From the IMG/VR virus record IMGVR_UViG_3300046532_004322, positions 17,329 to 81,328 of that record: a stretch of 64,000 bases of DNA. One strand, written 5' to 3'. Below, one piece after another: positions 30,501 through 64,000 of this stretch. Both the position numbers and the translations under genes were made by a program. Position 1 is the first letter of the stretch, and every line of letters begins with the position of its first letter. This DNA comes from a virus. The notes beneath the pieces were generated by a model. It was not told the DNA's origin. It saw nothing but the letters and a program-made list of their open reading frames with translations, and did no database searches.

Positions 30501-33500
30501 AAAGCACCGAATCCTAATTTTGACCCAACAGCTCCTCCTACTCCGACCCCTGTTCCAACCCCTGTTCCAACTCCAACCCCTGTTCCAACCCCTGTTCCAA
30601 CTCCTACCCCTGTTCCAACCCCTGTTCCAACTCCTACCCCTGTCCCAATTAATGAAGCTAAATACTTCCCGCCCAAAACCCCTCCTCCAAATAATCCCGC
30701 TCCAATACCTGTAAGGGCTAATCCTTTTCCTTTCCCTTTCATCATTGACTTCATAAACGCAGCTCCACTTGACCCCCATTCACCTGCGTGACTGCCAGCC
30801 ATACGCAAGTTCTGCATCCCGCTTGATCCAGCTTCACCCGCCATCTGACCCATAAATCCCAGACCTTTCATCCCAAGCTTGCCAGTATCTTCAGCTCTTC
30901 TCATTCCCCAATTGAGACTCCTTGATCCTAAGTCTCCCATTCTATTCCAAATTGTTTTTTTCGACCCCTGCCTAAGCTTGCTTTTCCTTACCTCCTTCAT
31001 CCTTCTCTTTTGCAACTCGTTCATAGCTTTTTCGCTACCACCAGAACTCTTGTCGCCTTTAGTATCATAGCCTGGTATGATTTTTCCAAATATACTTTTG
31101 GCATTCAAATTTGAAAAACTACCAATTCCCTTAATTTTATCAGATAACCAGCTATTAAATTTATCCTTAATCCCAACCTTTCCCTTATTCTTTTCACGAT
31201 AACCCGATAATTGATCCTTCGTATTCATGAAAGCCAATTGTAACTGAGTTATTAATCCTGGTTTTCCAGGTTTTCTTCTAGAATCCCCTTCTGATTTGCG
31301 ACCAAAAAGATTACTATCTATTTCAAATGGCGGAGTTAGCTTAAACATATTTTTTAAACTTTCCCATTTCTCCTTTCGCCTTTTCGACCTATCTCTCCCC
31401 CTTCTTTTCCTTTTGAGTCTTGCAGCCTCAAGATTCCTTCCTTTATTCCTTTTGTGTCGAGCCTTTTCCTCCAAACGTTCTTCTTCAATCATTGTAGACA
31501 TCTTGGATGTTGAGGTATCGTATATTTGATCTGCACCATAAGCGTCAAATATATATCTAGCTTGATTAGCTCCCGCCTTAATACCCCTCATTACTCCGCC
31601 CCCAACCGTTTTTCCTCCATGATAAATATCAGAAAGAACATTTGCACCTCCAGAAATTAACTTTCCAGCAGAGTCCATAAATACGTGTTTTCCAGCCTTG
31701 GCTCTTCCTGCGATTTTCTTATTATCTTTTTCTTTCTTCGCTAAATGATCCCTACGTTTGATATCTTCTGGGTTTAAAGGAGACTGGTATTTGTAATTTG
31801 CCTTGTTTAACCGCCTTAGTTCAGCAAGTTCCTTATTCGCTCTGTTTGCTATATTTTTTTGGTGCTGAATCCTTTCTTTTTTCTTTTCTTGAGATGTTTT
31901 TCTTTCTTCTGGAGTCATCGAATGCCAGTTATACAATCTAGCCAGCTTTCCACCCCTCGTTTCTTTTCCATCTTTCCCTCCATACCCCATAATCTTGAAA
32001 AATCTTTCTCCCAATGATAGTTTTCCCCTTTGAGCCTCATTGGCTAAGGTCGTCGCATCTTGAGCGCCCCTCTTCCCACTGAAAGCTCTCGCATTTGGCC
32101 CTTGAGCGACATGGCTCACCATCAAGCCTTTCACTAATTCATCTATGCCTATATTTTGCGCCCCAGTTATTCCGCCTTTTAGTAAATTATCAAACCCGCT
32201 TCTCGTAATTTGCGGAATTCCGTGTTTTAAATCCTTTTTTCCCCAATTTATAAAATCAAATAATCCAGCAGGCGTTCTTGTTTTGAAATCAGCATTATTC
32301 GAATTCCCAGAACCAATAAGTCTCTTGGACATTCCTAATACCTCATTTTTCATAGCCATTTTTTGAGGATCTATAAAAACGTTCCCAAAAAGACCCCTGA
32401 TCTTTCCAGATAGTCCTTCATTATATAAGGAAATGGATTTTATTCTATCGTTTAGTCGATCCAGCATTTTTCCCTGCAAGTCTTTATTGTTTGAAATTCC
32501 TAGCTGAATATGCTTATTGTTTGAAGGATTAGGTATTGCATTTCGCATTCCTGGCGAGCCAGGGGCATTTTCTACTGGACCCAAAAATCTTACCGATCCC
32601 TTTTTATTATCTATGTCCACTTGAATATCTTTACTTCTCAAGTCATTAATAAATCCCTCCGTCCCTTTTCCTCCACGAAGAATTTCTTTTTCTAATAAAT
32701 CATCAATAAATCCATACCCGCTCGCTTGCGTTCCCCCGCTTGTTTTTCCGCCTGCAAAATTTGGTATATATCCTGACGCACCATTATAATTATATCTGGC
32801 GTCTTCTTTATATGCGGACGCCCAAGGGTCGATTTTTGAAGAATTTGATGAAACCTTAGACTCTAAAGAAGCGACTCTTGACTCCAGGCTTGATACCCTT
32901 GCGGTATTCCCCGCCGATGAAACCACTCCAACCCGTCCTGCGAACCCAGCTGTTTTAATATTTGAATCTAAATTAATTGGCGATTTAGTTCTGGAATTTA
33001 AGCGTGGATTATAATACCAATTATCCCCCGCTCTTTGATAAACTGGTTGTGCTATTCCACCCACTACCCTAGTTGTTCTTGCCCCTCTTTGCTCTTGAAC
33101 CTTCATGCTTTGAGCTTTCCTATAAGCCCTTGTACCCTTTCCTCCACTCTTCCGTGTCGGACCCTTTCCTTTCCGCCTCCAATGCATCGCACCTTTTGCA
33201 AAATTAGGAACGAACCCGTCGTCCATATTTGGAATAAATCCTTCGCTCATGTTTGCAATAGCTTTATCCGTATGACCTAATTGCTTAAGTCTTGATGTTG
33301 CGGAAGTCCACCCATGCAGCGAACCCATTCCTGCTCTTGTTCGTTTAAAGCCAGCTTTAATATGCCCTTTTTCTAGTTCGGCTCGATCTTCCGCCCCCGA
33401 TTCTATCCGTTTGTTTGCGTTATGTACAAGATTACTCTTGCCCTTCTCTCCAGTTTTATTATATAGAGTGAATATTTTTTTCACCATACTAGCTCTTGAA

Positions 33501-36500
33501 TCCTTATTGTCCGATATTTTTGCATCTGCAAATGTAGTATTATATCCGAACAAATCTCGCAGGCTTTTTCCTGGGGCTTGAACTATATCAAATGTTGCAC
33601 TATTCGTCGTGAAGGCAGTATTTTTTGAAATAGATTTTAATCCACTTTCAAAAACATGCCCACTTAACACTCCGATATGCTGATCAATATCTTTAGATAA
33701 GCTTGCGTGTGGCGAAGGAAGGGGTTGCTTTGGTCCAAGTTTTGGGCCGATTAATTTTTTAGCCGTTCTTCCCACCATAGCATTGAACACACGCCTGGAA
33801 TCCGTTTTTATTTTGTCTTGTACAGTCGGCCCATCTTGAGGTCTTTTTATTCCTTCTACGTTAAATTTTACTCTCCTTTCCCTACCTCCTTTTTTTCTTG
33901 GACCAGCCCAATTAACCTGCCTTCTGTAACCTTCCTGAGGAACAAGCATTGTTGCTAAATTTCTTGCATCTAAAGTTTCGAATGTAGAATTTCTAGCTTT
34001 CATCTTGCTCTTGTCCTTAGATTCTAGGTTTGTCAGCTCGGAAGCAGTCCTACGTTTTCCTTGAGAATCAAATTCTCCGTATACCGATGCTCTTCCTGCG
34101 CTCGTTTTACTTGCGCCTCCTCTATATTCGTTTAATAGTCTTAGCGACTGTTCGTCCAACATGGATTCGGTTACCTTAACCCCCCCATCCCGAGTTTTGC
34201 CATGCGAAATGAATGAGTTTTCGTCTTTAAATTGGCTCCAAATGTTACCATTTGCCTTTTTTCCAGAATCTATAAGCGGCCCACCAGCCTCCGTTCTATA
34301 CTTAACATTTAATCCTCCAGCAGCATTTATAACATCTCTAGTTAATTTCGTATCTTTAGCTGTTATTAAATCTATACCAGTCTTAAATAAACTTGTTGCT
34401 CCCAAATCTATTTTCTCAGACATTCCATTGCTATGATTTACTTTCGGATTTGATAAATATAAATTAGCGGCTTTTTTCAGAACTCCCAATGTATTTTGTT
34501 TTCTTTTCCCCTTTACTTCAAAATGTCTTCCTCCAGCCAATAAATCAAAATATTTATTTCCTTTCAATAGGTTGACTGATTCTTTTCCTTTCAACCCAAA
34601 TTCTCCCCTACTCCTCTTTAAATGTCTTCTAGCTTCGCTTTCCGCCCATAACCCCTTTATTCCACCCACTGCATTTTGAAACTGTCCCTCTTGCCAATGA
34701 ATATCTTTTGTACTTTTTGGATCAACCCATTTTTTAGTTAAAGAATCAATGGAAGTCAAGGCTCCTTTCCCGTTTCCAGAACTCAAAAGGGACCCGTATA
34801 TTCCATTGGTCATAAGCTTTTTTCTTACGCCAGTTATGTTTTTATACTTTGGATTTATTATATATTTTTCTTTCCCAGCATTTTTCCCTATTCCGATTTC
34901 TTTTTCAAATATAGAATTAACTCCTAAATTAGGAGGCCCGTCTCTCCACTTTGGATGCCCGTCTTTCCATCTTGATTTCGCATTTTTCCCTGCCAAAATA
35001 CGATGAGCTTTGCTTCCCATTTCTGCAGAAGTTTTTGAGAGCTTTGTAACTCTTAGATTTCCAGAAAATACATCACTACTATCAGAAAATTTTGAAATTG
35101 GACTGGCTCCCCCCAGTCTCCACCCTAACTCGGAAGATTTTGCAGACATCTTCATCAATCCTTTTGAGAAATTCGGAACAAATCCTTCGGAAGCAGTGAT
35201 TCTCCTTGCTCCCCTTGGCATTCCGTATCTTTTAATCATTGATCTATTAAATATTGCCGTTCCTCCAGACCCCCTAAAATTAGGAACCTTCCATTCTCCA
35301 GTATGAGCAACTACACTTCGCCTTTTCCCTCCACCCATCGCATGATTTCTCAACACTACAGGCCTATCTCCTCTTCTTGCACCACCTACATTATTTCTTA
35401 TTGATCTTTGTTCTCTATTTACCGAAGGGAGAAATCCTGACGCCATGCCCAAAGTTTTGCGACCTCGTCTTTTGTTCCAAGGCCTGCCCGCTGGCACAAA
35501 GCCCGCCTCGGAAGCTCCTACACCCCTTAGGGAAGTCCCAGCGGCTATTCTTTTGACCAAAGCTTCCTGCTTCATTCTTTCAACAGTCTCTTGCTTTATT
35601 AATTTTAATATAATTTTTTGTTGCTTCGCGGTATTCCCAGAAGCAGCCATTATCTTTTGGTAAACTCCGCTATTTGATGCAAGGATAGAACCAATGGACG
35701 CTTGAAGGCTTTTTTGTCTTTTGGATTCTGAATTCATCCCAATAAGGTCTGAAAAAGCTTCTCTTGCGAACTTTGCTACAAGTACAAATATCTTAAGAAA
35801 AGCCGCTGTAATAATTGCAAATCCTGGACCAGCCAAGAATTTACCAAATCCCTTTACGATATTTTTTGCAAAATCGCTACCCGTATTTTCATCCAAAGCT
35901 TTATTTAACCACTCAGCTAATTTTCCAACCACTTTTAAAATCGACTTAAAGCTATCACTTACCGCAAGCTCTCCAAGCCTTGCCGCCAATTCTTTAGCAC
36001 TTAAAGATGTTTGGGTAAATATAGCACTTAGGGTCTTATTAAGTTCCTCGTTTCTTTTTATAGCTTCGTCAGTTGTTCCGTTTGCCGTTTTTAATGCTTT
36101 GTCGTAAATTGAATAACCATCTCCCAAGTCTTGAATCAAAGCTTGAAGATTTTGAATTTGAAATACCCCAGCTATTTGTTCGGAAGTAAATGCTTTTTGT
36201 GAATCCGATAGCGTTTTGTATACTTTTGCATAATCTTTAAGTATTGCAATACCAGATCTAAAATTACCATTCAAGTCTTTTGTAGAGACTCCAATTTCTT
36301 CAAGAGCTTCCCTGACCCTACTTCTTTTTATCCTTGTAAATATACTCTTGAATCCATTTCCTATTACGGAACCACCTCTAGCGGTTCTTTGTTGAACTGC
36401 AGTTACAATTGAAGCGAGTTCATTAAATGAAACCCCAGAAGATTGAGCAACTGCACCAGCTCTAGAGATAGCTTCTGCCAAATCTTTTGACGAAACCGCA

Positions 36501-37108
36501 AAAGCTGCATCTACATTAGCCATCCTGTTTACAATTTGCTCGTGAGTTATCCCTTCCTTATTAAAAGAGTTAATTGCAGCGGTTAAGGTTTCTGTGGACT
36601 TTACAGCACTTAATCCAGAAAGTCTTGATAGAATTAATGCAGAATTAACCCTGTCAAGAGTTTCTTGCGCTCCCAAACCTTGCCTAGCTAATTCAACGGC
36701 TGATTCGGATACGGTCTCAAAACTTGTTGCGGTATTTTTCGCTACACCAAACAAGCCTTGACCAAATTTCATCATTTCCCTGTTTGTCGCTTCCATCACG
36801 ACCTGAATATCCTTCAGTGCCTTTTCCACCTCTGCAGCGGATCTAACCATAGTTGCAAAGGCATTTGATATTCCATTAATTATTCCTACCGCAGCTCCAA
36901 ACGCAAATACACGAGCCGCAGAAGCATCCATTGATTTCTGAAATTCACTTGCAGCATTCGTTATTTTTCCAAGGGGCTGAACAAATCCTCTTGTGTTCAG
37001 CTTCGGAGACATTTGCATCCGATTAACCACTCTTTGTGCAGACACGGCTTGGCCGACAATACTGCCATGGAAACCCACTGCTGCGGTTGGAATATTTACT
37101 ACACTCAT
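24575..37108 (-). CDS. Tail tape measure protein (TP901-family core), 4177 aa, with inserted domains
   Basis: N-terminal ELARQGL..., DLAEAISRAGAVA, RGGSVIGNGFKSIFTRI core; follows tail tube and chaperones. Confidence 0.92.
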   Translation of the reverse strand: MSVVNIPTAAVGFHGSIVGQAVSAQRVVNRMQMSPKLNTRGFVQPLGKITNAASEFQKSMDASAARVFAFGAAVGIINGISNAFATMVRSAAEVEKALKDIQVVMEATNREMMKFGQGLFGVAKNTATSFETVSESAVELARQGLGAQETLDRVNSALILSRLSGLSAVKSTETLTAAINSFNKEGITHEQIVNRMANVDAAFAVSSKDLAEAISRAGAVAQSSGVSFNELASIVTAVQQRTARGGSVIGNGFKSIFTRIKRSRVREALEEIGVSTKDLNGNFRSGIAILKDYAKVYKTLSDSQKAFTSEQIAGVFQIQNLQALIQDLGDGYSIYDKALKTANGTTDEAIKRNEELNKTLSAIFTQTSLSAKELAARLGELAVSDSFKSILKVVGKLAEWLNKALDENTGSDFAKNIVKGFGKFLAGPGFAIITAAFLKIFVLVAKFAREAFSDLIGMNSESKRQKSLQASIGSILASNSGVYQKIMAASGNTAKQQKIILKLIKQETVERMKQEALVKRIAAGTSLRGVGASEAGFVPAGRPWNKRRGRKTLGMASGFLPSVNREQRSIRNNVGGARRGDRPVVLRNHAMGGGKRRSVVAHTGEWKVPNFRGSGGTAIFNRSMIKRYGMPRGARRITASEGFVPNFSKGLMKMSAKSSELGWRLGGASPISKFSDSSDVFSGNLRVTKLSKTSAEMGSKAHRILAGKNAKSRWKDGHPKWRDGPPNLGVNSIFEKEIGIGKNAGKEKYIINPKYKNITGVRKKLMTNGIYGSLLSSGNGKGALTSIDSLTKKWVDPKSTKDIHWQEGQFQNAVGGIKGLWAESEARRHLKRSRGEFGLKGKESVNLLKGNKYFDLLAGGRHFEVKGKRKQNTLGVLKKAANLYLSNPKVNHSNGMSEKIDLGATSLFKTGIDLITAKDTKLTRDVINAAGGLNVKYRTEAGGPLIDSGKKANGNIWSQFKDENSFISHGKTRDGGVKVTESMLDEQSLRLLNEYRGGASKTSAGRASVYGEFDSQGKRRTASELTNLESKDKSKMKARNSTFETLDARNLATMLVPQEGYRRQVNWAGPRKKGGRERRVKFNVEGIKRPQDGPTVQDKIKTDSRRVFNAMVGRTAKKLIGPKLGPKQPLPSPHASLSKDIDQHIGVLSGHVFESGLKSISKNTAFTTNSATFDIVQAPGKSLRDLFGYNTTFADAKISDNKDSRASMVKKIFTLYNKTGEKGKSNLVHNANKRIESGAEDRAELEKGHIKAGFKRTRAGMGSLHGWTSATSRLKQLGHTDKAIANMSEGFIPNMDDGFVPNFAKGAMHWRRKGKGPTRKSGGKGTRAYRKAQSMKVQEQRGARTTRVVGGIAQPVYQRAGDNWYYNPRLNSRTKSPINLDSNIKTAGFAGRVGVVSSAGNTARVSSLESRVASLESKVSSNSSKIDPWASAYKEDARYNYNGASGYIPNFAGGKTSGGTQASGYGFIDDLLEKEILRGGKGTEGFINDLRSKDIQVDIDNKKGSVRFLGPVENAPGSPGMRNAIPNPSNNKHIQLGISNNKDLQGKMLDRLNDRIKSISLYNEGLSGKIRGLFGNVFIDPQKMAMKNEVLGMSKRLIGSGNSNNADFKTRTPAGLFDFINWGKKDLKHGIPQITRSGFDNLLKGGITGAQNIGIDELVKGLMVSHVAQGPNARAFSGKRGAQDATTLANEAQRGKLSLGERFFKIMGYGGKDGKETRGGKLARLYNWHSMTPEERKTSQEKKKERIQHQKNIANRANKELAELRRLNKANYKYQSPLNPEDIKRRDHLAKKEKDNKKIAGRAKAGKHVFMDSAGKLISGGANVLSDIYHGGKTVGGGVMRGIKAGANQARYIFDAYGADQIYDTSTSKMSTMIEEERLEEKARHKRNKGRNLEAARLKRKRRGRDRSKRRKEKWESLKNMFKLTPPFEIDSNLFGRKSEGDSRRKPGKPGLITQLQLAFMNTKDQLSGYREKNKGKVGIKDKFNSWLSDKIKGIGSFSNLNAKSIFGKIIPGYDTKGDKSSGGSEKAMNELQKRRMKEVRKSKLRQGSKKTIWNRMGDLGSRSLNWGMRRAEDTGKLGMKGLGFMGQMAGEAGSSGMQNLRMAGSHAGEWGSSGAAFMKSMMKGKGKGLALTGIGAGLFGGGVLGGKYLASLIGTGVGVGTGVGTGVGVGTGVGTGVGVGTGVGTGVGVGGAVGSKLGFGAFLKMVAGGSALSTAGGILGGAAMSLPPAAIMAYFMSKHISKRNAEFQKRVKKTHKKYLKRQKKFVRDKKKAEQRVKFNKGMKEWDTVFDKGKGKNYYGQPERHKYQDKIFQTGSGVMVYSNERKFENNQESRDFKRAFEIKKAVNPRMSDAEITKGLREKGLSDKSHIYRRSDRPMPVDSGHKAGVDALKDLRAKFPDLSEAEILEKAKKERRRGIGRQKRGGVTPYTSSFIDDAMKALKRAAEIKANPYGHKKKSSTPRRGRAGGFIPNFARGGGNRHPGAGSPHPGKNNLTQSYIDGIRRGEIGEKEIAKLLQDQALILRNNPKKFQDQNDYMARSMDNIGNTQQKLKILRHASKLKGGAAGGFVPNFARPGRKFRRFNKDGFLSGTRKRKAANRRVDEAGFVWAVDKSQKLQKISEKLHLDKMDDIFQGFFSGGYIPSFSNPLENAYNREKSALRKRGIPSSAIRMERSPKLVDHRLNPGGFAITNRVDERFGLGQGINRSMAMGIDPKAHGMSEGFVPNFRFGMGFLKGLRPGSQPTRNINPNYRPSRKLPGGRTIPASRGKKYSESKNKFAKRRDKWEKQKAKTDASMSQMTMAAMFMGPMISQQIDAGQTAKGRGSLGGAVKNMGSSALMGAGFGAMLGTPGMAFGALGGAAYGAADSAMNWKDNKALSDIGEDLSKGKDKLDEKLKDLQAMIKYREGVQGLNDAFKSGDITKIKEGQKLMSESIASIVDPSVIDKLNSITNGTMSFSDQIEALSGVLKDAENNAKNAKNALEIGTAVSAGIEREKSVMSSAGEMLVDYGLFLPSAGLSSAVSQWRSGAGVTEGMDPTSWFGAGGMTAKLDSARWDESESKDFASKLKANFKQANTKSVAEITQEEFDRKKVLAARTGGSFDQTFDEFSKDFQDQAAVESARETLTSMQKDFGNLEEARLDILRGSIRGNRFGKGVDQNKLLYGDKDDLENASIMKGHLSDLEEKNAKDKLNNSSFIKALRDGGQSAAADKIVEGIIDPSENNLSKENLLMMKEQIQTQEKLIESLDSNADSNSKNATKVKNIEDELKSLIKEVRLLNFAIEDFNKNRETVERVRSINRDTIERDFSGKNNILSSVGAITEREKVSRSNTLQNIIARDSNNQELRSSMMERLLKGADPNSLIDMNQILKDKGLSAEKDEGTFLEREKKENEKKERPEREEFTNKFTDFMKQNADGNVTLVEIKGFLETLNSSNEYSNRIQTDMRNIELRNGAVFSAQLNQLKSENRNKMLELDAKFINKMGSSILGTNDTTKLNDAIRTGGLNRKGERSKFVKGLGRTVSEKENEAINSQSQAFLEESLGINLSGLTGRTGLDQRKAKINRNIEKMDKDIGPDGDPLIDFLEKRKKVAFANIDSVDQMQKSQFNNIGYGGELSDSLSDNGKMLASTLSIADNTESLFKLASNSGINISTTSQSGIATGIANSISSMLGDSVKQDLGEKTDSAGDRAASAAEAKKKRETPTVFAPVKVSGVRGKSGQTGFQEVRDPYWKRNRKQVTKWHLGDPKAGPISQFAGSDDPLNKAGTDLEKLPAQTKNLHFLAALSEEAKDANGDILTNDLVSNLARKLELLKSKPNWRTQNLADKGEDPRWLSTLTPKNDTIKLATKIIREQQNRVASLPHFTKLKNKGNAPSAGLWPIEATKFENMGIGDMPPVLGTDSPHLAPGYGQRQASQQDNFGILKDNIEALLKSYDNIENVQIDSILQDKMVRKAGDNDGVTQMLKPEQRDFLKQADVDVSGYGQLNIPQWAKDEKGFVLEIEKMKESWKAWFDKGTQAINQPSVTAPTMPTFSPVSNSGSRRATSWGGSLRSPVQGGPFIHDTQENVMPPSPYIASTPGADHTIHEVGKDGKVNQIDQAATEGVNKVSESINELPKAMKNELESVIFNHGITGNVTLDFNTEMFSQALGPVMFDQLKNMLLDPIISEVMARALEGRLNIRPDQIN
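30538..30647. repeat. Coding low-complexity repeat (GVGTGV)n inside the tape measure gene
   Basis: ccaacccctgtt / ccaactcctacc units. Confidence 0.9.
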
Positions 37109-57407: not shown

Positions 57408-57608
57408 ATTATTATATGCTATATGTTACAGCTATTTTTTGCAAAGTGCCGATTTTTTTTCAAAAAACTATATATTATAATAAAATAATGCTTCAGACTT
57501 TGAGTAAAACCACCCCCCCTCCGCCAGCAAAGCAAGGCAACTCCAAAAAATTCAAAAAACGGGGGGGGATCGTGCAACTTTTTAGTTGAAATGAAAGTCG
57601 TTATCGGT

Positions 57609-57637
57609 TTGCGTTTGGGTCGAAGTTGTCGTACCTT
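57609..57637 (+). promoter_or_regulatory. Cassette promoter P1
   Basis: TTGCGT-17-TACCTT. Confidence 0.7.
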
Positions 57638-57680
57638 GTTAATAGTTAATCATTCGTACCTATTCAAAAAAATCAAAATT

Positions 57681-57905
57681 ATGTCAAAAAAATTCGAAAA
57701 AGGAAAAATCAAATCCCTGAAGGTTGGAAGTCTTTACCATTCAACGACTAACAATAAGTGCGTTCGTTTGGTCGAGTTACATATCCAAGCAAGAATTTGC
57801 ATAATAAAGCATCATACTCAAGATCACTTGTTTCAATCGGAAGTCTTTTTCCAAGACTTGGAAGTTGCTACAGGTGAACAGGTTAAGAAATATTTTCAAA
57901 GGTAA
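57681..57905 (+). CDS. Small cassette protein, paralogue of 59616-59834
   Basis: Start MSKKF; about 74% identity (49/66 by hand) to paralogue. Confidence 0.8.
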   Translation: MSKKFEKGKIKSLKVGSLYHSTTNNKCVRLVELHIQARICIIKHHTQDHLFQSEVFFQDLEVATGEQVKKYFQR

Positions 57906-57931
57906 AACCAAAAAACAAAAGGAAAATTATA

Positions 57932-58174
57932 ATGGAAGACGAAAAAACGGAAGAAGAAAAGTCAACTTTTTACAGGCTTGACTTAACTCGGGATCAATGG
58001 GATAACTTAAAAGCTTCATTGTATCGTGCACAAACTATCGCAAAGGACAGGATGGAAAAATTGATCGAGGAAAAAGATCCTGCAAAGGAAACTATTCTTG
58101 ATCTTTTCGAAGATATGCAAAAAGCCCGTCAAGCTGTCGATCTTGCTTGGAATTATAACTACATTCTAAAGTGA
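57932..58174 (+). CDS. Small helical cassette protein
   Basis: AAGGA RBS; ORF track. Confidence 0.75.
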   Translation: MEDEKTEEEKSTFYRLDLTRDQWDNLKASLYRAQTIAKDRMEKLIEEKDPAKETILDLFEDMQKARQAVDLAWNYNYILK

Positions 58175-58221
58175 TTTTCGTAATAATCTTTGCTGTTTTC
58201 GTTGCTTGGATAAATCAATAA
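58171..58221 (+). CDS. 16-aa hydrophobic micro-ORF MIFVIIFAVFVAWINQ
   Basis: GTGA overlap with upstream stop; similar to 60191 and 62514 peptides. Confidence 0.5.
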   Translation: MIFVIIFAVFVAWINQ

Positions 58222-58261
58222 AAGAAAGGGAAAACACAATGTCCTTTTAAACAAAAAAGTT

Positions 58262-58293
58262 GCCCGATCTTCGCAAGAGGATCGGGCTTTTTT
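58262..58293 (+). terminator. Cassette terminator T1
   Basis: GCCCGATCTTC-GCAA-GAGGATCGGGC then T6; compensatory variant of T2-T5. Confidence 0.9.
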
Positions 58294-58385
58294 ATGCCCG
58301 AATCAGTCACAAGAGAATTGTGCAATAGATTGGCAGGATCGTGCTTGGAATAGTGCAACGATGTAACGCGATCAGTCAACTGTCA

Positions 58386-58458
58386 TAAGTCACTGATGCC
58401 CAAGGGTTTAGGGACGGCGGCAGCCGCCCACGCTAAACCTTTGGGGGTCAACGACTTA
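58386..58458. repeat. 73-bp double-dyad element, copy A
   Basis: TAAGTCACTG ATGCC CAAGGGTTTA GGGAC GGCGGCAGCCGCC CACGC TAAACCTTTG GGGGT CAACGACTTA. Confidence 0.95.
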
Positions 58459-58596
58459 CGACACGCCATGTACGAGAGAATTGTGCAATACAAAAGTGTA
58501 ATCAGGCAACTAAAAAGTTGCACAATACGATTGCCCTGTGATAGGATAGTGTAAGAAAACAGGCGAATGTTCTTGGCATATTTGGTCAAATATAAT

Positions 58597-58625
58597 TCGC
58601 TATTCGGCGGGGTTTGCCGTACCTT
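58597..58625 (+). promoter_or_regulatory. Cassette promoter P2 (leaderless)
   Basis: TCGCTA-17-TACCTT-7 nt-ATG. Confidence 0.7.
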
Positions 58626-58632
58626 GTATTAT

Positions 58633-58878
58633 ATGAAATCGCTCTCTTCTCTCTTTTTGCATTCTCACGCCCGTAAAGGGTCTTTAGCTGAACAGCTTTT
58701 TTGGATGGCTCGGATTGATTTTCTTTTGGAAAATCCGAATTCTCCAATGATTCAAACAAGGCAAGATCTTTCGCCTGTTTGCGTTCTGCCTGAAATCGAA
58801 ACTTTGAAAAAGTCATGGCTTGAACAAACCAAACAAGGTGAGGTTAATCGCCTTAAGACTTCGCCTTTAGTACGATAA
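58633..58878 (+). CDS. Small cassette protein
   Basis: Start reassigned to MKSLS at promoter. Confidence 0.7.
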   Translation: MKSLSSLFLHSHARKGSLAEQLFWMARIDFLLENPNSPMIQTRQDLSPVCVLPEIETLKKSWLEQTKQGEVNRLKTSPLVR

Positions 58879-58899
58879 CCAAATAAGGAGAAAAACAAT

Positions 58900-59163
58900 A
58901 TGAGCTACGAAATCGAAAAAAGAATAGACGAATTGCAAAAATTAACGCAAGACAGATGCGATCTCGAAAACGAAAAACCCGAAAACGAAGAGGAGGAATC
59001 CGAACGGCAGAATTCTCTTGATTGCAACGCCTACGAATCGGAAGAAGTGACTAAGGAAATCAAAAGCCTTTGCGCTTCCGCAGGTGAGCAAATCGAAAAT
59101 GCTGAAAATCTTTTAGGAATAACTGAAGGAAAAAGTCAATTTCCAATGTGGACAATCAAATGA
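58900..59163 (+). CDS. Small acidic coiled-coil cassette protein
   Basis: AAGGAG RBS. Confidence 0.8.
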   Translation: MSYEIEKRIDELQKLTQDRCDLENEKPENEEEESERQNSLDCNAYESEEVTKEIKSLCASAGEQIENAENLLGITEGKSQFPMWTIK

Positions 59164-59225
59164 TTATCATCGAATTAAGTTGCATAATCGCACCGCCCGC
59201 CTTAATCGTTCTTTACCTACTCTGA
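59160..59225 (+). CDS. 21-aa hydrophobic micro-ORF MIIIELSCIIAPPALIVLYLL
   Basis: ATGA overlap; ends just before terminator. Confidence 0.45.
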   Translation: MIIIELSCIIAPPALIVLYLL

Positions 59226-59231
59226 AAAGTT

Positions 59232-59263
59232 GCCCTATCCTCGCAAGGGGATAGGGCTTCTTT
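59232..59263 (+). terminator. Cassette terminator T2
   Basis: GCCCTATCCTC-GCAA-GGGGATAGGGC then TTCTTT. Confidence 0.85.
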
Positions 59264-59355
59264 ATGCCCGAATCAGTCACAAGAGAATTGTGCAATAGAT
59301 TGGCAGGATCGTGCTTGGAATAGTGCAACGATGTAACGCGATCAGTCAACTGTCA

Positions 59356-59428
59356 TAAGTCACTGATGCCCAAGGGTTTAGCGTGGGCGGCTGCCGCCGT
59401 CCCTAAACCTTTGGGGGTCAACGACTTA
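59356..59428. repeat. 73-bp element, copy B (core inverted relative to A)
   Basis: Arms identical to A; 23-bp core is the exact reverse complement of A's core. Confidence 0.95.
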
Positions 59429-59579
59429 CAACACGCCATGTACGAGAGAATTGTGCAATGCAAAAGTGTAATCAGGCAACTAAAAAGTTGCACAATACGA
59501 TTGCCCTGTGAGAGCATTAGTCAACTTCCTAGTAATCGAATCGTGCAAGAAAATAGGTGAATATTTGGAGCGATTTAAT

Positions 59580-59608
59580 TCGCTATTTACCCCTTTTGCT
59601 CGTATCTT
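59580..59608 (+). promoter_or_regulatory. Cassette promoter P3 (leaderless)
   Basis: TCGCTA-17-TATCTT-7 nt-ATG. Confidence 0.7.
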
Positions 59609-59615
59609 GTATTAT

Positions 59616-59834
59616 ATGAAATTCGAATACGGAAATATCGACTCGCTGAAAGAGGGTACTTTGTACCATAGCAAGCAAAACAATAAAGTCGTGCGACTCG
59701 TAGAGTTGCACAAACAAGCAAGAATATGCATAATCAAGCACCATGCACAAGATCACTTGTTTCAACCCGAAGTCTTTTTTAAGGACTTAACCAAGGCAAC
59801 GAGCGATCAAGTCGAGGCTTACTTTCAAAGGTAA
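59616..59834 (+). CDS. Small cassette protein, paralogue of 57681-57905
   Basis: Start reassigned to MKFEY. Confidence 0.8.
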   Translation: MKFEYGNIDSLKEGTLYHSKQNNKVVRLVELHKQARICIIKHHAQDHLFQPEVFFKDLTKATSDQVEAYFQR

Positions 59835-59861
59835 GCTTTCAATCAAAACAAAAGGAAAATC

Positions 59862-60188
59862 ATGCGACAAGTAACGGAACATATCAAAAACGCCTTTTGT
59901 CAAGGCTTATCCTTGACAGTTGGAAACACTAAAACAGATGGTACAAGCGTCTTTCTTCACGGCAACGAGATTGTCAGGAGAGATCCAAGCGGGTTAGTCT
60001 TTGCTACGCTTGCGGGTTGGAACACTCGCACGACAATGGAAAGAGTCAACGGCATTACAGGAATGAATTTTCATCAAGTCGGGTTTGTTGCTTGTCTTGA
60101 TGACGAACCAATTTGCGAAGACGATTGGTTTGTGCAAACCCATGACGGAACGGCAACCGCCTTGCCTCCTCCTCCTTTGTCAATATAA
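59862..60188 (+). CDS. Phage hypothetical protein (LHGN.I / GW.T.TT..R.N type)
   Basis: AAGGA RBS; motif pattern recalled from phage accessory regions. Confidence 0.75.
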   Translation: MRQVTEHIKNAFCQGLSLTVGNTKTDGTSVFLHGNEIVRRDPSGLVFATLAGWNTRTTMERVNGITGMNFHQVGFVACLDDEPICEDDWFVQTHDGTATALPPPPLSI

Positions 60189-60190
60189 TC

Positions 60191-60244
60191 ATGCTTTTAG
60201 CAATTGTACTTTACTCTTGTTTAGTTGCCTATTCGAATTGGTAA
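60191..60244 (+). CDS. 17-aa hydrophobic micro-ORF MLLAIVLYSCLVAYSNW
   Basis: ATG 2 nt after upstream stop, before terminator. Confidence 0.5.
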   Translation: MLLAIVLYSCLVAYSNW

Positions 60245-60261
60245 AAAAACCTTAGAAAGTT

Positions 60262-60293
60262 GCCCTATCCTCGCAAGGGGATAGGGCTTTTCT
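60262..60293 (+). terminator. Cassette terminator T3
   Basis: Same hairpin as T2 then TTTTCT. Confidence 0.85.
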
Positions 60294-60316
60294 ATGCCCC
60301 AATTAGTCACCTTTCA

Positions 60317-60389
60317 TAAGTTACTGATACCCAAGGGTTTAGCCTTGGCGGCTGCCGCCGTCCCTAAACCTTTGGGGAGCAACGACTTA
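60317..60389. repeat. 73-bp element, copy C
   Basis: TAAGTTACTG ATACC CAAGGGTTTA GCCTT GGCGGCTGCCGCC GTCCC TAAACCTTTG GGGAG CAACGACTTA. Confidence 0.95.
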
Positions 60390-60474
60390 CAAGAAGTGAC
60401 CGATACCACTAAAAAGTTGCATCTTGGTGCTGATCCGCAAGCGGATCGTGCAATAAGATAGTTGAATATTTAGT

Positions 60475-60503
60475 TCGCTATTTGGAGGGGCTTGTCGTAT
60501 CTT
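60475..60503 (+). promoter_or_regulatory. Cassette promoter P4 (leaderless)
   Basis: TCGCTA-17-TATCTT-6 nt-ATG. Confidence 0.7.
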
Positions 60504-60509
60504 GTACTT

Positions 60510-60734
60510 ATGATAAATGATGATTCCCTCGCCCGCACCGCTCACGCTCTCGGCATGACTGATGTCGAATTTACCGCACGGGAGGCGATTCTCGCACTTC
60601 CTCCCGTCTCGGATATTCCCCCGCCCCCGCCTATTCCCAAAGGCGTTCGTCCTCTTCCTCAAATTGAATCCACCCCCAAGGAACTCAGCGATTGGGTTAC
60701 TCAGGATCTTCTAGACGGGGCGTTCGACGACTAA
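60510..60734 (+). CDS. Small Pro-rich cassette protein
   Basis: Single-gene cassette bounded by promoter and terminator. Confidence 0.75.
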   Translation: MINDDSLARTAHALGMTDVEFTAREAILALPPVSDIPPPPPIPKGVRPLPQIESTPKELSDWVTQDLLDGAFDD

Positions 60735-60740
60735 AAAGTT

Positions 60741-60772
60741 GCCCTATCCTCGTAAGGGGATAGGGCTTTTCT
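60741..60772 (+). terminator. Cassette terminator T4
   Basis: Same stem with GTAA loop (GNRA kept). Confidence 0.85.
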
Positions 60773-60795
60773 ATGCCCCAATTAGTCACCTGTCA

Positions 60796-60868
60796 TAAGT
60801 CACTGATGCCCAAGAGTTTAGCGTGGGCGGCTGCCGCCAAAGGTAAACCTTTGGGGTGCAACGACTTA
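60796..60868. repeat. 73-bp element, copy D
   Basis: TAAGTCACTG ATGCC CAAGAGTTTA GCGTG GGCGGCTGCCGCC AAAGG TAAACCTTTG GGGTG CAACGACTTA. Confidence 0.95.
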
Positions 60869-61013
60869 CGAAACATGACTGATACTACCATAATAATGAA
60901 CAATCCTTTAATATAATAAGTCAACTTTATAATATAATATATACATTAACCTATTTACCTATTTTATTGTATTATTCTATTTGATAGAAAAGTATTATTT
61001 TGTTAAAATAAAT

Positions 61014-61042
61014 TTGCTATTTATCGAAAAGTGGCTTACTCT
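61014..61042 (+). promoter_or_regulatory. Cassette promoter P5 (leaderless)
   Basis: TTGCTA-17-TACTCT-6 nt-ATG. Confidence 0.65.
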
Positions 61043-61048
61043 ATATAT

Positions 61049-61351
61049 ATGAAAGAGAAAAACACCGATTCACAAAGCTTTTCAATATTCGATCTGATCG
61101 AAAAGGGTCTTCATACTAATGAAGTTGCATATGAAGGAGCAAAAGTTTTAATGGATTTGCATGTGCAGTTAAATGCAATTAAAAATGTAGTAAAAAGCAA
61201 GAAAGACAAAAAGGGAGTTTATGCCAACGATCTTTCTGATGACCCTAATTCTATCTTGTGCGTAACCATAATTGATTGGATGGAACAAGAATTGAAAAAA
61301 ATCGAAAAGCATTACAATAAAACGCTTAATGTAAACCATTACGAAAGATAA
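61049..61351 (+). CDS. Small cassette protein
   Basis: Start reassigned to MKEKN. Confidence 0.75.
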   Translation: MKEKNTDSQSFSIFDLIEKGLHTNEVAYEGAKVLMDLHVQLNAIKNVVKSKKDKKGVYANDLSDDPNSILCVTIIDWMEQELKKIEKHYNKTLNVNHYER

Positions 61352-61355
61352 GAAA

Positions 61356-61592
61356 ATGAAAATCCAAAAATCCGAAAAAGACGAAAACACTTTAATCATA
61401 GCGGACGAGATCCTCGTCCGCTTGTGCGATGAAACCAATAAAATTCTTTCGGTAGAATTTCCTAAGAATTACTTGGAAAATCTAGAGGATGAAATCAAAT
61501 GGATGGTAATTGAATATCTTGACGCAAGATCCGAATGCTTGGCTTTCGGTAACAATGTTTGGACTGAAGCGAATCCTAAATGGGAATTCTAG
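61356..61592 (+). CDS. Small acidic cassette protein
   Basis: ORF ending at terminator. Confidence 0.75.
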   Translation: MKIQKSEKDENTLIIADEILVRLCDETNKILSVEFPKNYLENLEDEIKWMVIEYLDARSECLAFGNNVWTEANPKWEF

Positions 61593-61598
61593 AAAGTT

Positions 61599-61630
61599 GC
61601 CCTATCCTCGCAAGGGGATAGGGCTTCTTT
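61599..61630 (+). terminator. Cassette terminator T5
   Basis: Identical hairpin to T2. Confidence 0.85.
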
Positions 61631-61722
61631 ATGCCCGAATCGGTCACAATAGAATTGTGCAATAGATTGACGGGATCGTGTTCGTGATCGTACAATAGGG
61701 TAGTGCGATCAGTCAACCGTCA

Positions 61723-61795
61723 TAAGTTGCTGATAGCCAAAGGTTTAGCGTGAGCGGCTGCCGCCGAGGGTAAACCCTTGGGGAGCAACGACTTA
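61723..61795. repeat. 73-bp element, copy E
   Basis: TAAGTTGCTG ATAGC CAAAGGTTTA GCGTG AGCGGCTGCCGCC GAGGG TAAACCCTTG GGGAG CAACGACTTA. Confidence 0.95.
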
Positions 61796-61884
61796 CGAAA
61801 CATGATCAATACCACAGGAAAATTGCATCTCGGACGCTAATGCCCCGCAAGCGGATCGTGCAATAAAATAGTTGAATATTTAGT

Positions 61885-61913
61885 TCGCTATTTGGAGGGA
61901 CTTGTCGTACCTT
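61885..61913 (+). promoter_or_regulatory. Cassette promoter P6 (leaderless)
   Basis: TCGCTA-17-TACCTT-6 nt-ATG; near-identical to P4. Confidence 0.7.
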
Positions 61914-61919
61914 GTACAT

Positions 61920-62258
61920 ATGAAATTAACTATAGAGTTTGACGAGGTTACCGAATCTGAATTTTCCGCAAATATAGAATTTGCAGACGGGAGATCGTTT
62001 TGGGTAGAAGGTGAAAACGACACCGATGAAATGGAAAATCTTTATGGCGATCAAGTAGAGTCGATTTCTACTTTGGCTAGATTCGACTCGCTTAGCGATG
62101 TAAAGCCCTATGATCAAGACGGGGAAAGTTGCAACTCAATTTCTCTTTCTGAAATTGAAACAATTAAAAAGGCTCTAGATTCAGGACTTCGGGATTATGA
62201 AATTTCAGCACAAAAGTACAAGGTTGACTATTCTCCTAGATACTACGATTTAATATGA
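61920..62258 (+). CDS. Highly acidic small cassette protein
   Basis: Start reassigned to MKLTI. Confidence 0.75.
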   Translation: MKLTIEFDEVTESEFSANIEFADGRSFWVEGENDTDEMENLYGDQVESISTLARFDSLSDVKPYDQDGESCNSISLSEIETIKKALDSGLRDYEISAQKYKVDYSPRYYDLI

Positions 62259-62377
62259 GGGTCAAAGTCAGAATCCCAATAAGTAAACAAGCTTGGAGCA
62301 AATCCATGCCACATAAGAGGAATAATAAAGTCCTTCCTCGCAAACAAAAACACAAGGAAAAAATATGTACATCCTAG
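62255..62377 (+). CDS. 40-aa basic peptide with RKQKHK motif
   Basis: ATGA overlap; MRVKVRIPISKQAWSKSMPHKRNNKVLPRKQKHKEKICTS. Confidence 0.5.
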   Translation: MRVKVRIPISKQAWSKSMPHKRNNKVLPRKQKHKEKICTS

Positions 62378-62514
62378 AATCAATCCCGTTTCTTAATAAA
62401 ACAGGTTGGATTGCCGAGAGCATTCCAATGTTCAAGAGAGAAGCCGAGGCTTTGCTAAAGTCAAGACGAGCTTTCGAGGATCGCAAGTTTCGCTATAAAC
62501 TCACAAAAGTATAA
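62365..62514 (+). CDS. 49-aa cassette protein
   Basis: AAGGA RBS; MYILESIPFLNKTGWIAES...RYKLTKV. Confidence 0.6.
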   Translation: MYILESIPFLNKTGWIAESIPMFKREAEALLKSRRAFEDRKFRYKLTKV

Positions 62515-62573
62515 TGGAAATTTTAACTATTCTCTTATTCTCAGCCTTAGTCTTTTATGTAAACCAATTGTGA
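62514..62573 (+). CDS. 19-aa hydrophobic micro-ORF MEILTILLFSALVFYVNQL
   Basis: TAATG overlap; last ORF before element F. Confidence 0.5.
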   Translation: MEILTILLFSALVFYVNQL

Positions 62574-62589
62574 AATAAGTCAACTTACA

Positions 62590-62662
62590 TAAGTTACTGA
62601 TAGCTAAGGGTTTAGCGCGGGCGGCAGCCGCCAAAGGTAAACCTTTGGTGGTTAAGGACTTA
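62590..62662. repeat. 73-bp element, copy F
   Basis: TAAGTTACTG ATAGC TAAGGGTTTA GCGCG GGCGGCAGCCGCC AAAGG TAAACCTTTG GTGGT TAAGGACTTA. Confidence 0.92.
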
Positions 62663-62968
62663 CAGAAGAGTAGCCTTCACAACCTTGGTGCATTGCCAAA
62701 CCCAATTGCCACCCTTGCCATTTAAGCCCTTGTAGTAACGCAAGCCCGCCTGCCAAGCATTCTTTCCGTACTGACGCACGACAAAGGAATGGTTCATAGT
62801 GCGGTTCTGTACAGTTAAGGCATATAGATTGCCAGTAGTATGAGCTTGCCAAAGCCTTTGCCTACCTCTCCATACAGGATCGAAAGGAATATTGCTCTTG
62901 CAATCAGCAGAGTCATGCAATCGCTTTTGTTGAGCAAACCAATCTAATTGTGCTTGTGTTAGGTTCAT
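62660..62968 (-). CDS. Small cassette protein (inverted cassette)
   Basis: Stop codon is the terminal TTA of element F. Confidence 0.75.
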   Translation of the reverse strand: MNLTQAQLDWFAQQKRLHDSADCKSNIPFDPVWRGRQRLWQAHTTGNLYALTVQNRTMNHSFVVRQYGKNAWQAGLRYYKGLNGKGGNWVWQCTKVVKATLL

Positions 62969-62972
62969 CGTC

Positions 62973-63179
62973 TTAGAATTTTAGTGATTTTAGTGAGGTG
63001 TTCTTTTTGAGCCATCTCCTTAATGGATGGAATGCTTTTGCGGAGAAATGTGCGAGATACTGCTCGCCATTCTTTGCGAGTATCATTTGACCACTCGCAG
63101 TCGCCCGAATCTCTGCAATTTCGGGACATTTTTTCAGCTGTTTTAATACTTTTCGAGTTCCGCTTTCTGAATGTTTCAT
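62973..63179 (-). CDS. Small basic protein, possibly HicA-like fold
   Basis: Helix-RATASGQMIL-beta-H-helix pattern; Q in place of the catalytic His; leaderless promoter upstream. Confidence 0.5.
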   Translation of the reverse strand: MKHSESGTRKVLKQLKKCPEIAEIRATASGQMILAKNGEQYLAHFSAKAFHPLRRWLKKNTSLKSLKF

Positions 63180-63185
63180 ACTTAT

Positions 63186-63214
63186 AAAGTACCACGCTAA
63201 ACAAGGGAACGCAA
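63186..63214 (-). promoter_or_regulatory. Cassette promoter P7 (minus strand, leaderless)
   Basis: TTGCGT-17-TACTTT (TG extension)-6 nt-ATG 63179. Confidence 0.75.
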
Positions 63215-63240
63215 GAAAAATCTTAGTGAAAATGCTTTCG

Positions 63241-63313
63241 TAAAGTGTTGATGACCAAGGCTTTAGCCTGGGCGGGTGCCGCCGAGTGTAAACCTTTGGG
63301 GAACAACGACTTA
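63241..63313. repeat. 73-bp element, copy G
   Basis: TAAAGTGTTG ATGAC CAAGGCTTTA GCCTG GGCGGGTGCCGCC GAGTG TAAACCTTTG GGGAA CAACGACTTA. Confidence 0.92.
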
Positions 63314-63411
63314 CGAGAAGTGACTAATACCACAGAATAGTTGCATCTCAGAGCTAATGTCCCGCAAGCGGATAAGTCAATAAAATAGTTGAATATTTGG
63401 AGTTATTTTAT

Positions 63412-63440
63412 TTGCTCTTTACCTGTTTTTGTTCTATATT
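63412..63440 (+). promoter_or_regulatory. Cassette promoter P8 (leaderless)
   Basis: TTGCTC-17-TATATT-6 nt-ATG. Confidence 0.65.
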
Positions 63441-63446
63441 CTATTT

Positions 63447-63857
63447 ATGAAAGTTAATTATTCCTTATCCCTTGAGAGTATTGAAGAAATGAATGGTGGT
63501 ATGTTCGATGCAAATTGTATTGTTACCATCTCCGCAAGCAATGATGACGCACCCGAATCAATTACGGACTTGATGATCTACGCAAGCGTGGATTTCCTTG
63601 CTGATTGTGACGAGGGAGGTTTTTCCCTTCGTGCTGATGTTCGAGGGTTTCAAGTTTACGATTCCAACGAAAAGGAAATTTGCCCTGCCGATCACTTCGA
63701 CTCAATCGAAGATCGAGACATTGAAAATTTTCTCGAAAGTGACGGAAATTGGAACATCAACGAGGCTTGGAATTGGATGGACGATAGACTCCAAGGAATA
63801 GCTGAAAGCTCAAAGCTCGAGTCTCAACTCTCAAATCTCGAAAGTCGCCAAAAATAA
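63447..63857 (+). CDS. Highly acidic cassette protein
   Basis: Start reassigned to MKVNY; stop TAA is the first triplet of element H. Confidence 0.75.
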   Translation: MKVNYSLSLESIEEMNGGMFDANCIVTISASNDDAPESITDLMIYASVDFLADCDEGGFSLRADVRGFQVYDSNEKEICPADHFDSIEDRDIENFLESDGNWNINEAWNWMDDRLQGIAESSKLESQLSNLESRQK

Positions 63858-63927
63858 AGTACTGATAGCCAAGGGTTTAGCCTAGGCGGCTGCCGCCGAG
63901 CGTAAACCTTTGGGGAACAACGACTTA
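63855..63927. repeat. 73-bp element, copy H
   Basis: TAAAGTACTG ATAGC CAAGGGTTTA GCCTA GGCGGCTGCCGCC GAGCG TAAACCTTTG GGGAA CAACGACTTA. Confidence 0.93.
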
Positions 63928-63953
63928 CGCAACGCTATTCTGCCATGATGCAC

Positions 63954-63979
63954 AAAAAAAGCCCGCCTCGTGGCGAGCT
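63954..63979 (-). terminator. Minus-strand intrinsic terminator (end of a probable further inverted cassette)
   Basis: Minus strand AGCTCGCC-ACGA-GGCGGGC followed by T7. Confidence 0.7.
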
Positions 63980-64000
63980 AATTCTTTTAAAAAATTATTT

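Follow-up and report, generated by a model that had tools for sequence, protein, structure and literature searches.

The final 64 kb of an 81,328-bp viral contig (IMG/VR record IMGVR_UViG_3300046532_004322, positions 17,329 to 81,328; estimated completeness 66%), hereafter the window, end in an array of small gene cassettes that are separated by copies of a 73-bp imperfectly palindromic element. Based on sequence comparisons with relatives, this is a lineage-wide, array-restricted, and polar boundary element with protein-site-like conservation, and the modules that it delimits are reordered between relatives, with junctions that fall in or at the element at variable positions. The array lies in an accessory region beside PhoH and TerL in an uncultured marine phage clade with genomes of up to ~200 kb, and this region is probably expressed early. 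With moderate confidence, we favor the reading that the element is a protein-bound duplex boundary site that serves as portable homology for general recombination of cassettes, similar to the shuffling of promoter-early stem-loop (PeSL) cassettes.

Anatomy and distribution of the boundary element

Eight copies of the element, each of 73 bp and without indels, were listed in a preliminary description of the window, and all of them were re-found at the same starts (Table 1); a 20-base core pattern matched eight of the eight copies and gave no match in 100 shuffles. The length invariance claimed in that description holds within this genome but not in relatives, where homologues range from 67 to 74 bp, while the claim of an imperfect palindrome was borne out (46–56 of 73 positions self-complementary per copy). 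Element copies are restricted to the last 6.4 kb of the 81-kb contig and occur nowhere else in it; the GTAYCTTGTA box and the shared terminator described below are, like the element, confined to positions 57600–64000. Whole-element orientation is identical in all eight copies, and the flanks of copies 6–8 are unlike those of copies 1–5. When the eight intergenic regions were aligned, the sole block common to all was the ~74-bp element (TAA…TTAC); the terminator, a 75-nt upstream block, a GATCCGCAAGCGGATC hairpin, and the promoter box were each found in different subsets of these regions.

The family consensus begins with a left dyad, TAAGTCnTTGAT-A-ATCAAGCACTTA, continues through a center of 4–6 variable bases, the core GCGGC-W-GCCGC, and ~4 more variable bases, and closes with a right dyad, TAAGTGCTTGAT-A-ATCAACGACTTA, followed by C. 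The two ~25-bp dyads thus provide four half-sites, TAAnTnnTTGAT, around a GC-rich core. Across 134 unique full-length copies, A2, A3, and T9 are invariant (100%) in all four half-sites, and every copy ends in TAAGT … ACTTA(C), which agrees with the earlier remark that the element lacks the GTTRRRY/RYYYAAC ends of integron attC sites. Both inner half-sites of the window copies are changed to TAAACCYTTGGG, with TAA and TTG retained. Read inward, the half-site is ATCAAnnAnTTA, and its reverse complement resembles the IHF consensus, WATCAANNNNTTR (PMC9452768); exact 13-mer matches to this consensus occur 6–14 times per array inside the elements of relatives, an enrichment of ~100-fold. Four other roles were considered and rejected. 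Translated in either direction, the element gives PKGL..AAAA..KPLG, but the differences among copies are non-synonymous; the GG/GC spacing is unsuitable for a sigma-54/upstream activating sequence (UAS) site on reading the sequence; a Fur-box resemblance concerned TGATAATCA, a sequence missing from the window copies; and an N4/crAss-type hairpin promoter was dropped once the 4177-aa open reading frame (ORF) of this phage proved to encode a tape-measure protein.

The palindromic layout raises the question of whether the element acts as a hairpin or as duplex DNA. The predicted folding energy of single copies is −24 to −43 kcal/mol (z-scores as low as −7.9), and the two strands fold about equally well. 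Among the 134 copies, however, the Watson-Crick fraction equals the column-shuffle expectation for the Lo-Ro, Lo-Li, and Ri-Ro pairings of left (L) and right (R), outer (o) and inner (i) half-sites (mutual information z ~0.5), and the inner-inner pairing alone shows modest covariation, driven by the lineage of the window itself. Half-site positions 6–7 are mostly non-complementary, and G·T and A·C mismatches are equally frequent, with no G·U strand bias. Over the whole window, Rfam at the gathering threshold returned 0 matches and ARAGORN no tRNA, and the element stands downstream of canonical terminators on both strands. Since pairing covariation is at chance level and a G·U strand bias is absent, we conclude that the palindrome arises incidentally from four recognition half-sites that resemble one another in duplex DNA and does not represent a hairpin.

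Among the phage genes of the contig are those for TerL, PhoH, a protease, ribonucleotide reductase, and the tape-measure protein, and these all lie on the minus strand. No cultured phage has a TerL more than 26% identical to this one. IMG/VR contains 441 relatives, and the array stretch was present in 24 metagenome runs (seawater, marine, or ice) that come from 21 studies. A profile search of the contig and its relatives, as the preliminary description had proposed, was made with a covariance model (R1) built from the eight window copies, to which nhmmer added further homologues, and it revealed a conserved, array-restricted family. Homologues were found only in relatives with TerL 67–85% identical to that of the window, which form one uncultured marine phage clade; each array has 6–10 of them in a single 9–12-kb region near TerL/PhoH, 5–17 kb from TerL, and at least 30 IMG/VR contigs have two or more copies. 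Carriers include G010 and the clade with TerL at least 77% identical. In a 206-kb relative rated 100% complete (G006), copies are limited to one ~9-kb region with none outside, contrary to the earlier alternative of a repetitive extragenic palindromic (REP) or miniature inverted-repeat transposable element (MITE) family dispersed genome-wide. Another relative, known from an 85-kb record (L009/G001; protease 70% identical), has no element near the protease or anywhere else and no DNA similarity. Exact-pattern scans of viral, metagenome, and genome collections with the window core gave 0 matches, a result that is uninformative on rarity. An 18-mer right-arm pattern had 120+ matches in bacterial genomes, which is about the chance number, and the covariance model identified no true element copy at the bacterial candidate loci that match this 18-mer.

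Some observations on the wider sequence space are worth recording. The 18-mer TAAGTGCTTRRTAAWCAA occurs on several contigs of a Microscillaceae metagenome-assembled genome (MAG; L229, L241, L251, L261, and L278), above single-genome chance, and likewise on Verrucomicrobiota MAG contigs (L223, L240, and L243); the full element is absent from both, and these matches could represent an unrelated repeat family of those genomes. Two TerL relatives at 64–66% identity (G007, locus L045, and G009, locus L052), both without the element, are classed as proviruses in IMG/VR, so the wider clade may include temperate members. The 4177-aa ORF (24575–37108, minus strand) has a PhageMin_Tail domain at its N-terminus and is extraordinarily long for a tape-measure protein.

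Polarity, module order, and exchange junctions

The two outer half-sites of the element differ consistently (…TCACTGAT vs …TCGTTGAT), which gives the element a polarity. Where the units on both sides run rightward (>E> contexts), the AC/GC-type half-site is on the left in 14 of 15 elements, whereas in <E< contexts it is on the left in 0 of 20 and the GT-type takes this place in 12 of 20. It is always the GT-type end that points toward the predicted promoter of the following unit, and element polarity tracks the direction of transcription.

Synteny was assessed from protein families across six arrays together with the element sites found by nhmmer. Every module boundary in the six arrays has an element, and module order is variable, which supports the earlier description of a cassette array delimited by this element. 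Between the families (F G) and N, four modules can be recognized, namely 6 (S Ac I), 7 (J V Ad), 8 (Ab Ao H), and 9 (K Ae W L M T); their order is 6-7-8-9 in L102, 8-6-7-9 in L098, and 6-9-8-7 in L100, and it differs again in L099 and L101. A comparison of cassette order between relatives, which had been suggested as a check, thus showed that the order is not fixed. Module orientation, in contrast to order, is constant in all relatives compared, and no inverted matches of at least 150 bp were detected between arrays except for one that spans an element alone. Family D is leftward and adjoins an element in all five relatives. As the minus-strand unit is leftward in every relative, its orientation is ancestral and does not reflect a recent inversion, and the cassette inversion that had been proposed found no support.

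The element pairs that could be compared included 34 with one common flank only (21 upstream and 13 downstream) and 9 with both. Pairs with only the downstream flank in common share the right half of the element, and identity decays through the center (Wilcoxon p = 2e-4, for pairs that are not independent); these arm comparisons are based on MAFFT/hmmalign alignments. A three-way informative-site test gave ratios of upstream-like to downstream-like sites of 89:8 in the 5′ flank, 24:26 and 21:36 in the left arm, 8:34 in the core, 6:57 and 9:57 in the right arm, and 20:104 in the 3′ flank, so the switch can occur anywhere from the 5′ edge to the core. Four recent events, in which one flank is near-identical and the other unrelated, have sharp junctions at differing places. 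These are the left edge, the inner half-site of the left arm, the border between core and right arm, and a point immediately beyond the right edge. Logan contigs, which are short and break at repeats, carry alternative sequences whose junctions coincide with element ends (after 60868 and 62663; before 62584 and 63234). One contig from run X7 (depth ~4) joins 61867 to 60458 outside the element, inside a 79-nt promoter-region repeat (60435–60513 and 61845–61923, 95% identical), which would reflect a tandem duplication, a circle of 1410 bp with two cassettes, or another order that arose through homology outside the element. The search of reads for circles and junctions proposed earlier was thus productive for alternative joins at element ends, while for circles it yielded a contig that a tandem duplication would explain equally. 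Breakpoints at a single nucleotide were not observed: junctions are spread from the left edge to the right edge, and one variant lies in the promoter repeat.

The element center has itself been rearranged. Copies 1 and 2 lie within 293-nt blocks that are 95% identical, yet their 21-nt centers are exact reverse complements; copy 1 is the flipped one, and at least one independent center flip has occurred in relatives. A 21-nt segment is too short for an invertase to synapse, and the simplest reading would be that template switching or a short exchange took place between the inner arms, which are inverted relative to each other.

Recombination enzymes were searched for in this contig and in the complete 206-kb relative, and Phage_integrase (PF00589), Resolvase, and Y1_Tnp were found in neither (controls were positive); a co-occurring tyrosine recombinase or Y1 (HUH) enzyme, for which a search had been suggested, was hence not detected. 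Inside the array of the complete relative, no recombinase was present either, and the genes there are L5 gp82-like, GP88-like, and GT47-like genes and orphans. The site-specific, integron- or shufflon-like mechanism put forward in the preliminary description is therefore not supported, given that integrase, resolvase, and Y1 transposase were not detected, junctions are variable, and pairing is not under selection.

We suggest the following mechanism. The half-sites would be maintained by the binding of a protein, which could be an architectural host factor similar to IHF or else a phage regulator or insulator. As the same 70–85 bp occur at every boundary, they would form a portable homology patch, and general recombination between copies, within one genome or between co-infecting relatives, could then delete, duplicate, excise, and re-insert whole self-expressing units while leaving the genes uncut. 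The flipped center of copy 1 would be a by-product that arose as outlined above.

Cassettes, terminators, and predicted promoters

The order terminator, element, and predicted promoter is found on both strands of the array (Table 1). The shared terminator, GCCCTATCC-TCGCAAG-GGATAGGGC plus a T-run, was located in all five units that it had been said to close, and each of the five plus-strand terminators lies 26–100 nt upstream of an element; the three units without a separate terminator end directly at an element. The first promoter-like box contains …TTGTCGTACCTTGT…, and a predicted box GTAYCTTGTA, 6–7 nt before the ATG, is conserved in four to five units, with variants in the others; the earlier count of exactly one promoter per interval is a prediction that relies on this box and its variants. 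The distance from the element to the next predicted promoter is ~60 nt in leftward units and 121–188 nt in the window. The cassette ORFs are nearly all orphans, and a protein atlas look-up of the small ORF families A and D gave no usable lead.

Table 1. Coordinates of the array features in the window
Feature	Position	Strand	Remark
Element copy 1	58386..58458	+	Center flipped vs copies 2 and 3
Element copy 2	59356..59428	+	
Element copy 3	60317..60389	+	
Element copy 4	60796..60868	+	Run X1: alternative downstream sequences attach directly after 60868
Element copy 5	61723..61795	+	
Element copy 6	62590..62662	+	Last 3 nt are the stop codon of minus-strand ORF 62660–62968
Element copy 7	63241..63313	+	Flanked by divergent predicted promoters
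Element copy 8	63855..63927	+	First 3 nt are the stop codon of ORF 63447–63857
293-nt block	58255..58547	+	95% identical to 59225–59517 except for the reverse-complemented 21-nt element center
Intrinsic terminator of unit 0	58262..58295	+	Recurs at 59232–59257, 60262–60287, 60741–60766, 61599–61624
Intrinsic terminator	63960..63979	-	Strong; just right of copy 8, implies a leftward unit past the contig end
First promoter-like box of the array	57607..57644	+	
Related promoter-like boxes	58590–58628, 59573–59611, 60468–60506, 61878–61916, 63378–63445		Ending 6–7 nt before the first ATG of the unit
Cassette 0	57681..58174	+	Family A ORF and 80-aa orphan ORF
Cassette 1	58633..59163	+	Two orphan ORFs
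Cassette 2	59616..60188	+	Family A paralogue and Kyano_Gp96/phrog_554-like ORF (family P)
Cassette 3	60510..60734	+	One orphan ORF
Cassette 4	61049..61592	+	Family E ORF and 78-aa ORF; divergent AT-rich predicted promoter region
Cassette 5	61920..62514	+	Family Q ORF and 49-aa ORF
Leftward unit	62660..63179	-	102-aa ORF and family D 68-aa ORF
Cassette 7	63447..63857	+	One 136-aa orphan ORF

The array is truncated at the contig end, as seen from three observations: the window stops at the end of the contig, metagenome reads contain at least one further element copy with a different left arm, and a minus-strand terminator stands to the right of copy 8. It probably continues with leftward units, as in relatives, and the assembly probably broke in the repeats.

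Several features of the cassettes deserve mention in their own right. A TAYCTT box stands 6–7 nt before the first ATG without a Shine-Dalgarno sequence (58619–58635, 59602–59618, 60497–60512, and 61907–61922), whereas second genes of cassettes have AAGGA-type sites, which suggests that first genes may be translated from leaderless mRNAs. Family A has two paralogues in the window array (57681–57905 and 59616–59834) and provides the first rightward gene beside PhoH in five of five relatives. A small perfect hairpin, (GAT)CCGCAAGCGG(ATC) with a GCAA loop, lies between the element and the promoter at 60437–60452, 61847–61862, and 63356–63371, and TTGTGCAAT / TCGTGCAA motifs recur in other intergenic regions. 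In L098, positions 10478–10891 and 11218–11943 encode homologues of mycobacteriophage L5 gp82 (PF25735) and GP88 (PF17338), families characteristic of non-structural early regions.

Competing explanations and comparison with known systems

Some findings weigh against a protein-bound homology patch for general recombination. RecA/UvsX, RecT, Erf, and Rad52 were not recognizable in the complete relative, where a Sak4-type match fell below threshold, so exchange would need host RecA or an unrecognized protein, and the missing general recombinase is neutral between these two. The junction analyses represent roughly 4–8 independent events, and later gene conversion between copies could have blurred an originally precise junction. 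The IHF-like half-site described earlier stands for relatives, with their enriched 13-mer; window copies have 0 exact IHF 13-mers and keep the reduced core CAA-N4-TTA only (20-fold enriched). No HU/IHF-family gene was found in five phage records, so the binder would be a host factor or an unrecognized phage protein. Lastly, the variable distance between element and promoter appears to argue against a classical operator role.

The element might instead be purely regulatory or architectural (a polar roadblock, a stoperator-like insulator, or a promoter bending site), with shuffling being passive because the element is the sole common sequence. Protein-site-like half-site conservation, the position after terminators and before promoters on both strands, a polarity that tracks transcription, and the precedent of many oriented repressor sites between units (PMC9283540) all fit this view, which differs from the favored one in emphasis only; we nevertheless consider it unlikely, as the element-promoter distance varies, no cognate regulator was found, and the promoter of the first unit (57607–57644) has no upstream element. 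More doubtful still is an integron-like system in which an unrecognized phage protein or host recombinase binds the half-sites, excises units as circles, and re-inserts them, and we are equally skeptical of its corollary that the four-half-site element is the recognition site of an unrecognized recombination protein and hence part of an IntI/attC-independent gene-capture platform of large virulent marine phages. The four-box layout about a center does resemble recombination sites, elements occupy every boundary of permuted modules with fixed polarity, in the three-way test the right arm stays with the module to its right in nearly all cases, and the center flip shows that this DNA is recombinogenic; moreover, a general recombinase is not recognizable either, and the mostly orphan genes could hide a novel enzyme. 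Against this, Phage_integrase, Resolvase, and Y1_Tnp are absent from the contig and the complete relative, junctions vary across the whole element with one variant in the promoter repeat outside it, inversions are missing although a palindromic site should permit them, and no attC-like structural covariation was detected.

Two further explanations seem very improbable to us. A structured nucleic acid, either an RNA hairpin (3′ stabilizer, RNase III site, or terminator) or a DNA cruciform, would account for the strong predicted folds and for the three units that end directly at the element, but not for covariation at chance in 134 copies, the non-complementary positions 6–7, the lack of G·U bias, the near-equal folding of both strands, the location downstream of canonical terminators, or the lack of an Rfam match; a GC-rich center also disfavors cruciform extrusion. 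We give similarly little credence to a selfish MITE/REP-like mobile element colonizing intergenic spacers. Its appeal lies in sharply defined ends (TAAGT…ACTTA) with inverted termini, in a size that is small and uniform, and in the dissimilar flanks of copies 6–8 and 1–5. Yet the element is confined to one array even in the complete 206-kb genome and missing from the bacterial candidate loci, and it comes with no transposase or RAYT and no separate target-site duplication. Moreover, every module boundary has one, with a polarity linked to transcription, and conservation extends to relatives whose TerL is as little as 67% identical.

For work on the exchange of accessory and host-takeover genes among large phages, the array is a natural system of unusual clarity, since each unit boundary is tagged by one element and units are permuted between genomes of many seawater metagenomes. 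The element can be found with a simple model, serves as a marker for delimiting the hyperplastic region, and explains why assemblies of these phages break at the array. If a protein binds it, that protein would give a new handle on early-gene organization in an abundant clade without a cultured member; should an enzyme direct the exchange, cassette capture would have been invented a second time, independently.

Comparison with known systems helps to place the element. REP elements, bacterial interspersed mosaic elements (BIME) with IHF sites (RIP/RIB), and Correia elements are scattered across bacterial genomes in association with RAYT or transposases. Like REP/BIME and Correia elements, ours is a short extragenic palindromic composite that lies at the 3′ ends of transcription units and has IHF-like sequences, with exact consensus matches in relatives, but it is phage-specific, array-restricted, and unrelated in sequence; as it is neither dispersed nor accompanied by a transposase, it is not a REP or MITE family. 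It also differs from a shufflon (Rci/sfx), as PF00589 is missing and there is no inverted segment of at least 150 bp other than the one that spans an element only. Stoperators of Cluster A mycobacteriophages are 13–14-bp asymmetric sites of a known monomeric repressor that occur genome-wide in temperate phages (PMC9283540); the array similarly has many predicted protein-binding-type sites between transcription units in an orientation tied to transcription, although here the site is a composite of ~73 bp found in one array only.

Integron attC sites are likewise imperfect palindromes with a four-box layout that separate units, and here, too, units are permuted and the element moves mainly with one neighbor. 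In the phage, however, no IntI was detected (PF00589, contig and complete G006), RYYYAAC … GTTRRRY ends are lacking, sequence and not structure is conserved, crossover points are variable, and the carrier is a virulent-type phage genome; integron cassettes are promoterless and depend on a common Pc, whereas each unit here has a predicted promoter box and most have their own terminator. Because IntI, attC ends, structural covariation, and a fixed crossover are all missing and the cassettes appear to be self-expressing, as their predicted promoters suggest, the array is not an integron. The closest parallel is the PeSL of T4-type phages, a repeated intergenic motif that flanks ORFan-rich, self-expressed units, with variable crossover points, mini-circles, and no dedicated recombinase (PMC2839356, PMC4122927). 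In the same way, ORFan units in a plastic part of the genome are bounded by a repeated intergenic motif (eight copies here and 9–10 in each array of the relatives), at which relatives have gained, lost, replaced, or reordered units with variable crossover points. The backward-joining contig of run X7 would fit a circle or a tandem duplication. The PeSL itself is a sigma-70 early promoter plus a terminator stem-loop, whereas the present element is neither and consists of 67–74 bp with four half-sites; the phage itself is no relative of T4, its TerL being 26% identical at most to those of cultured phages, and boundary occupancy is complete. Since the common element sits between a separate terminator and a separate promoter box, it works like a PeSL but is not one, and our verdict is that of a modular shuffling system which resembles PeSL and uses a new boundary element.

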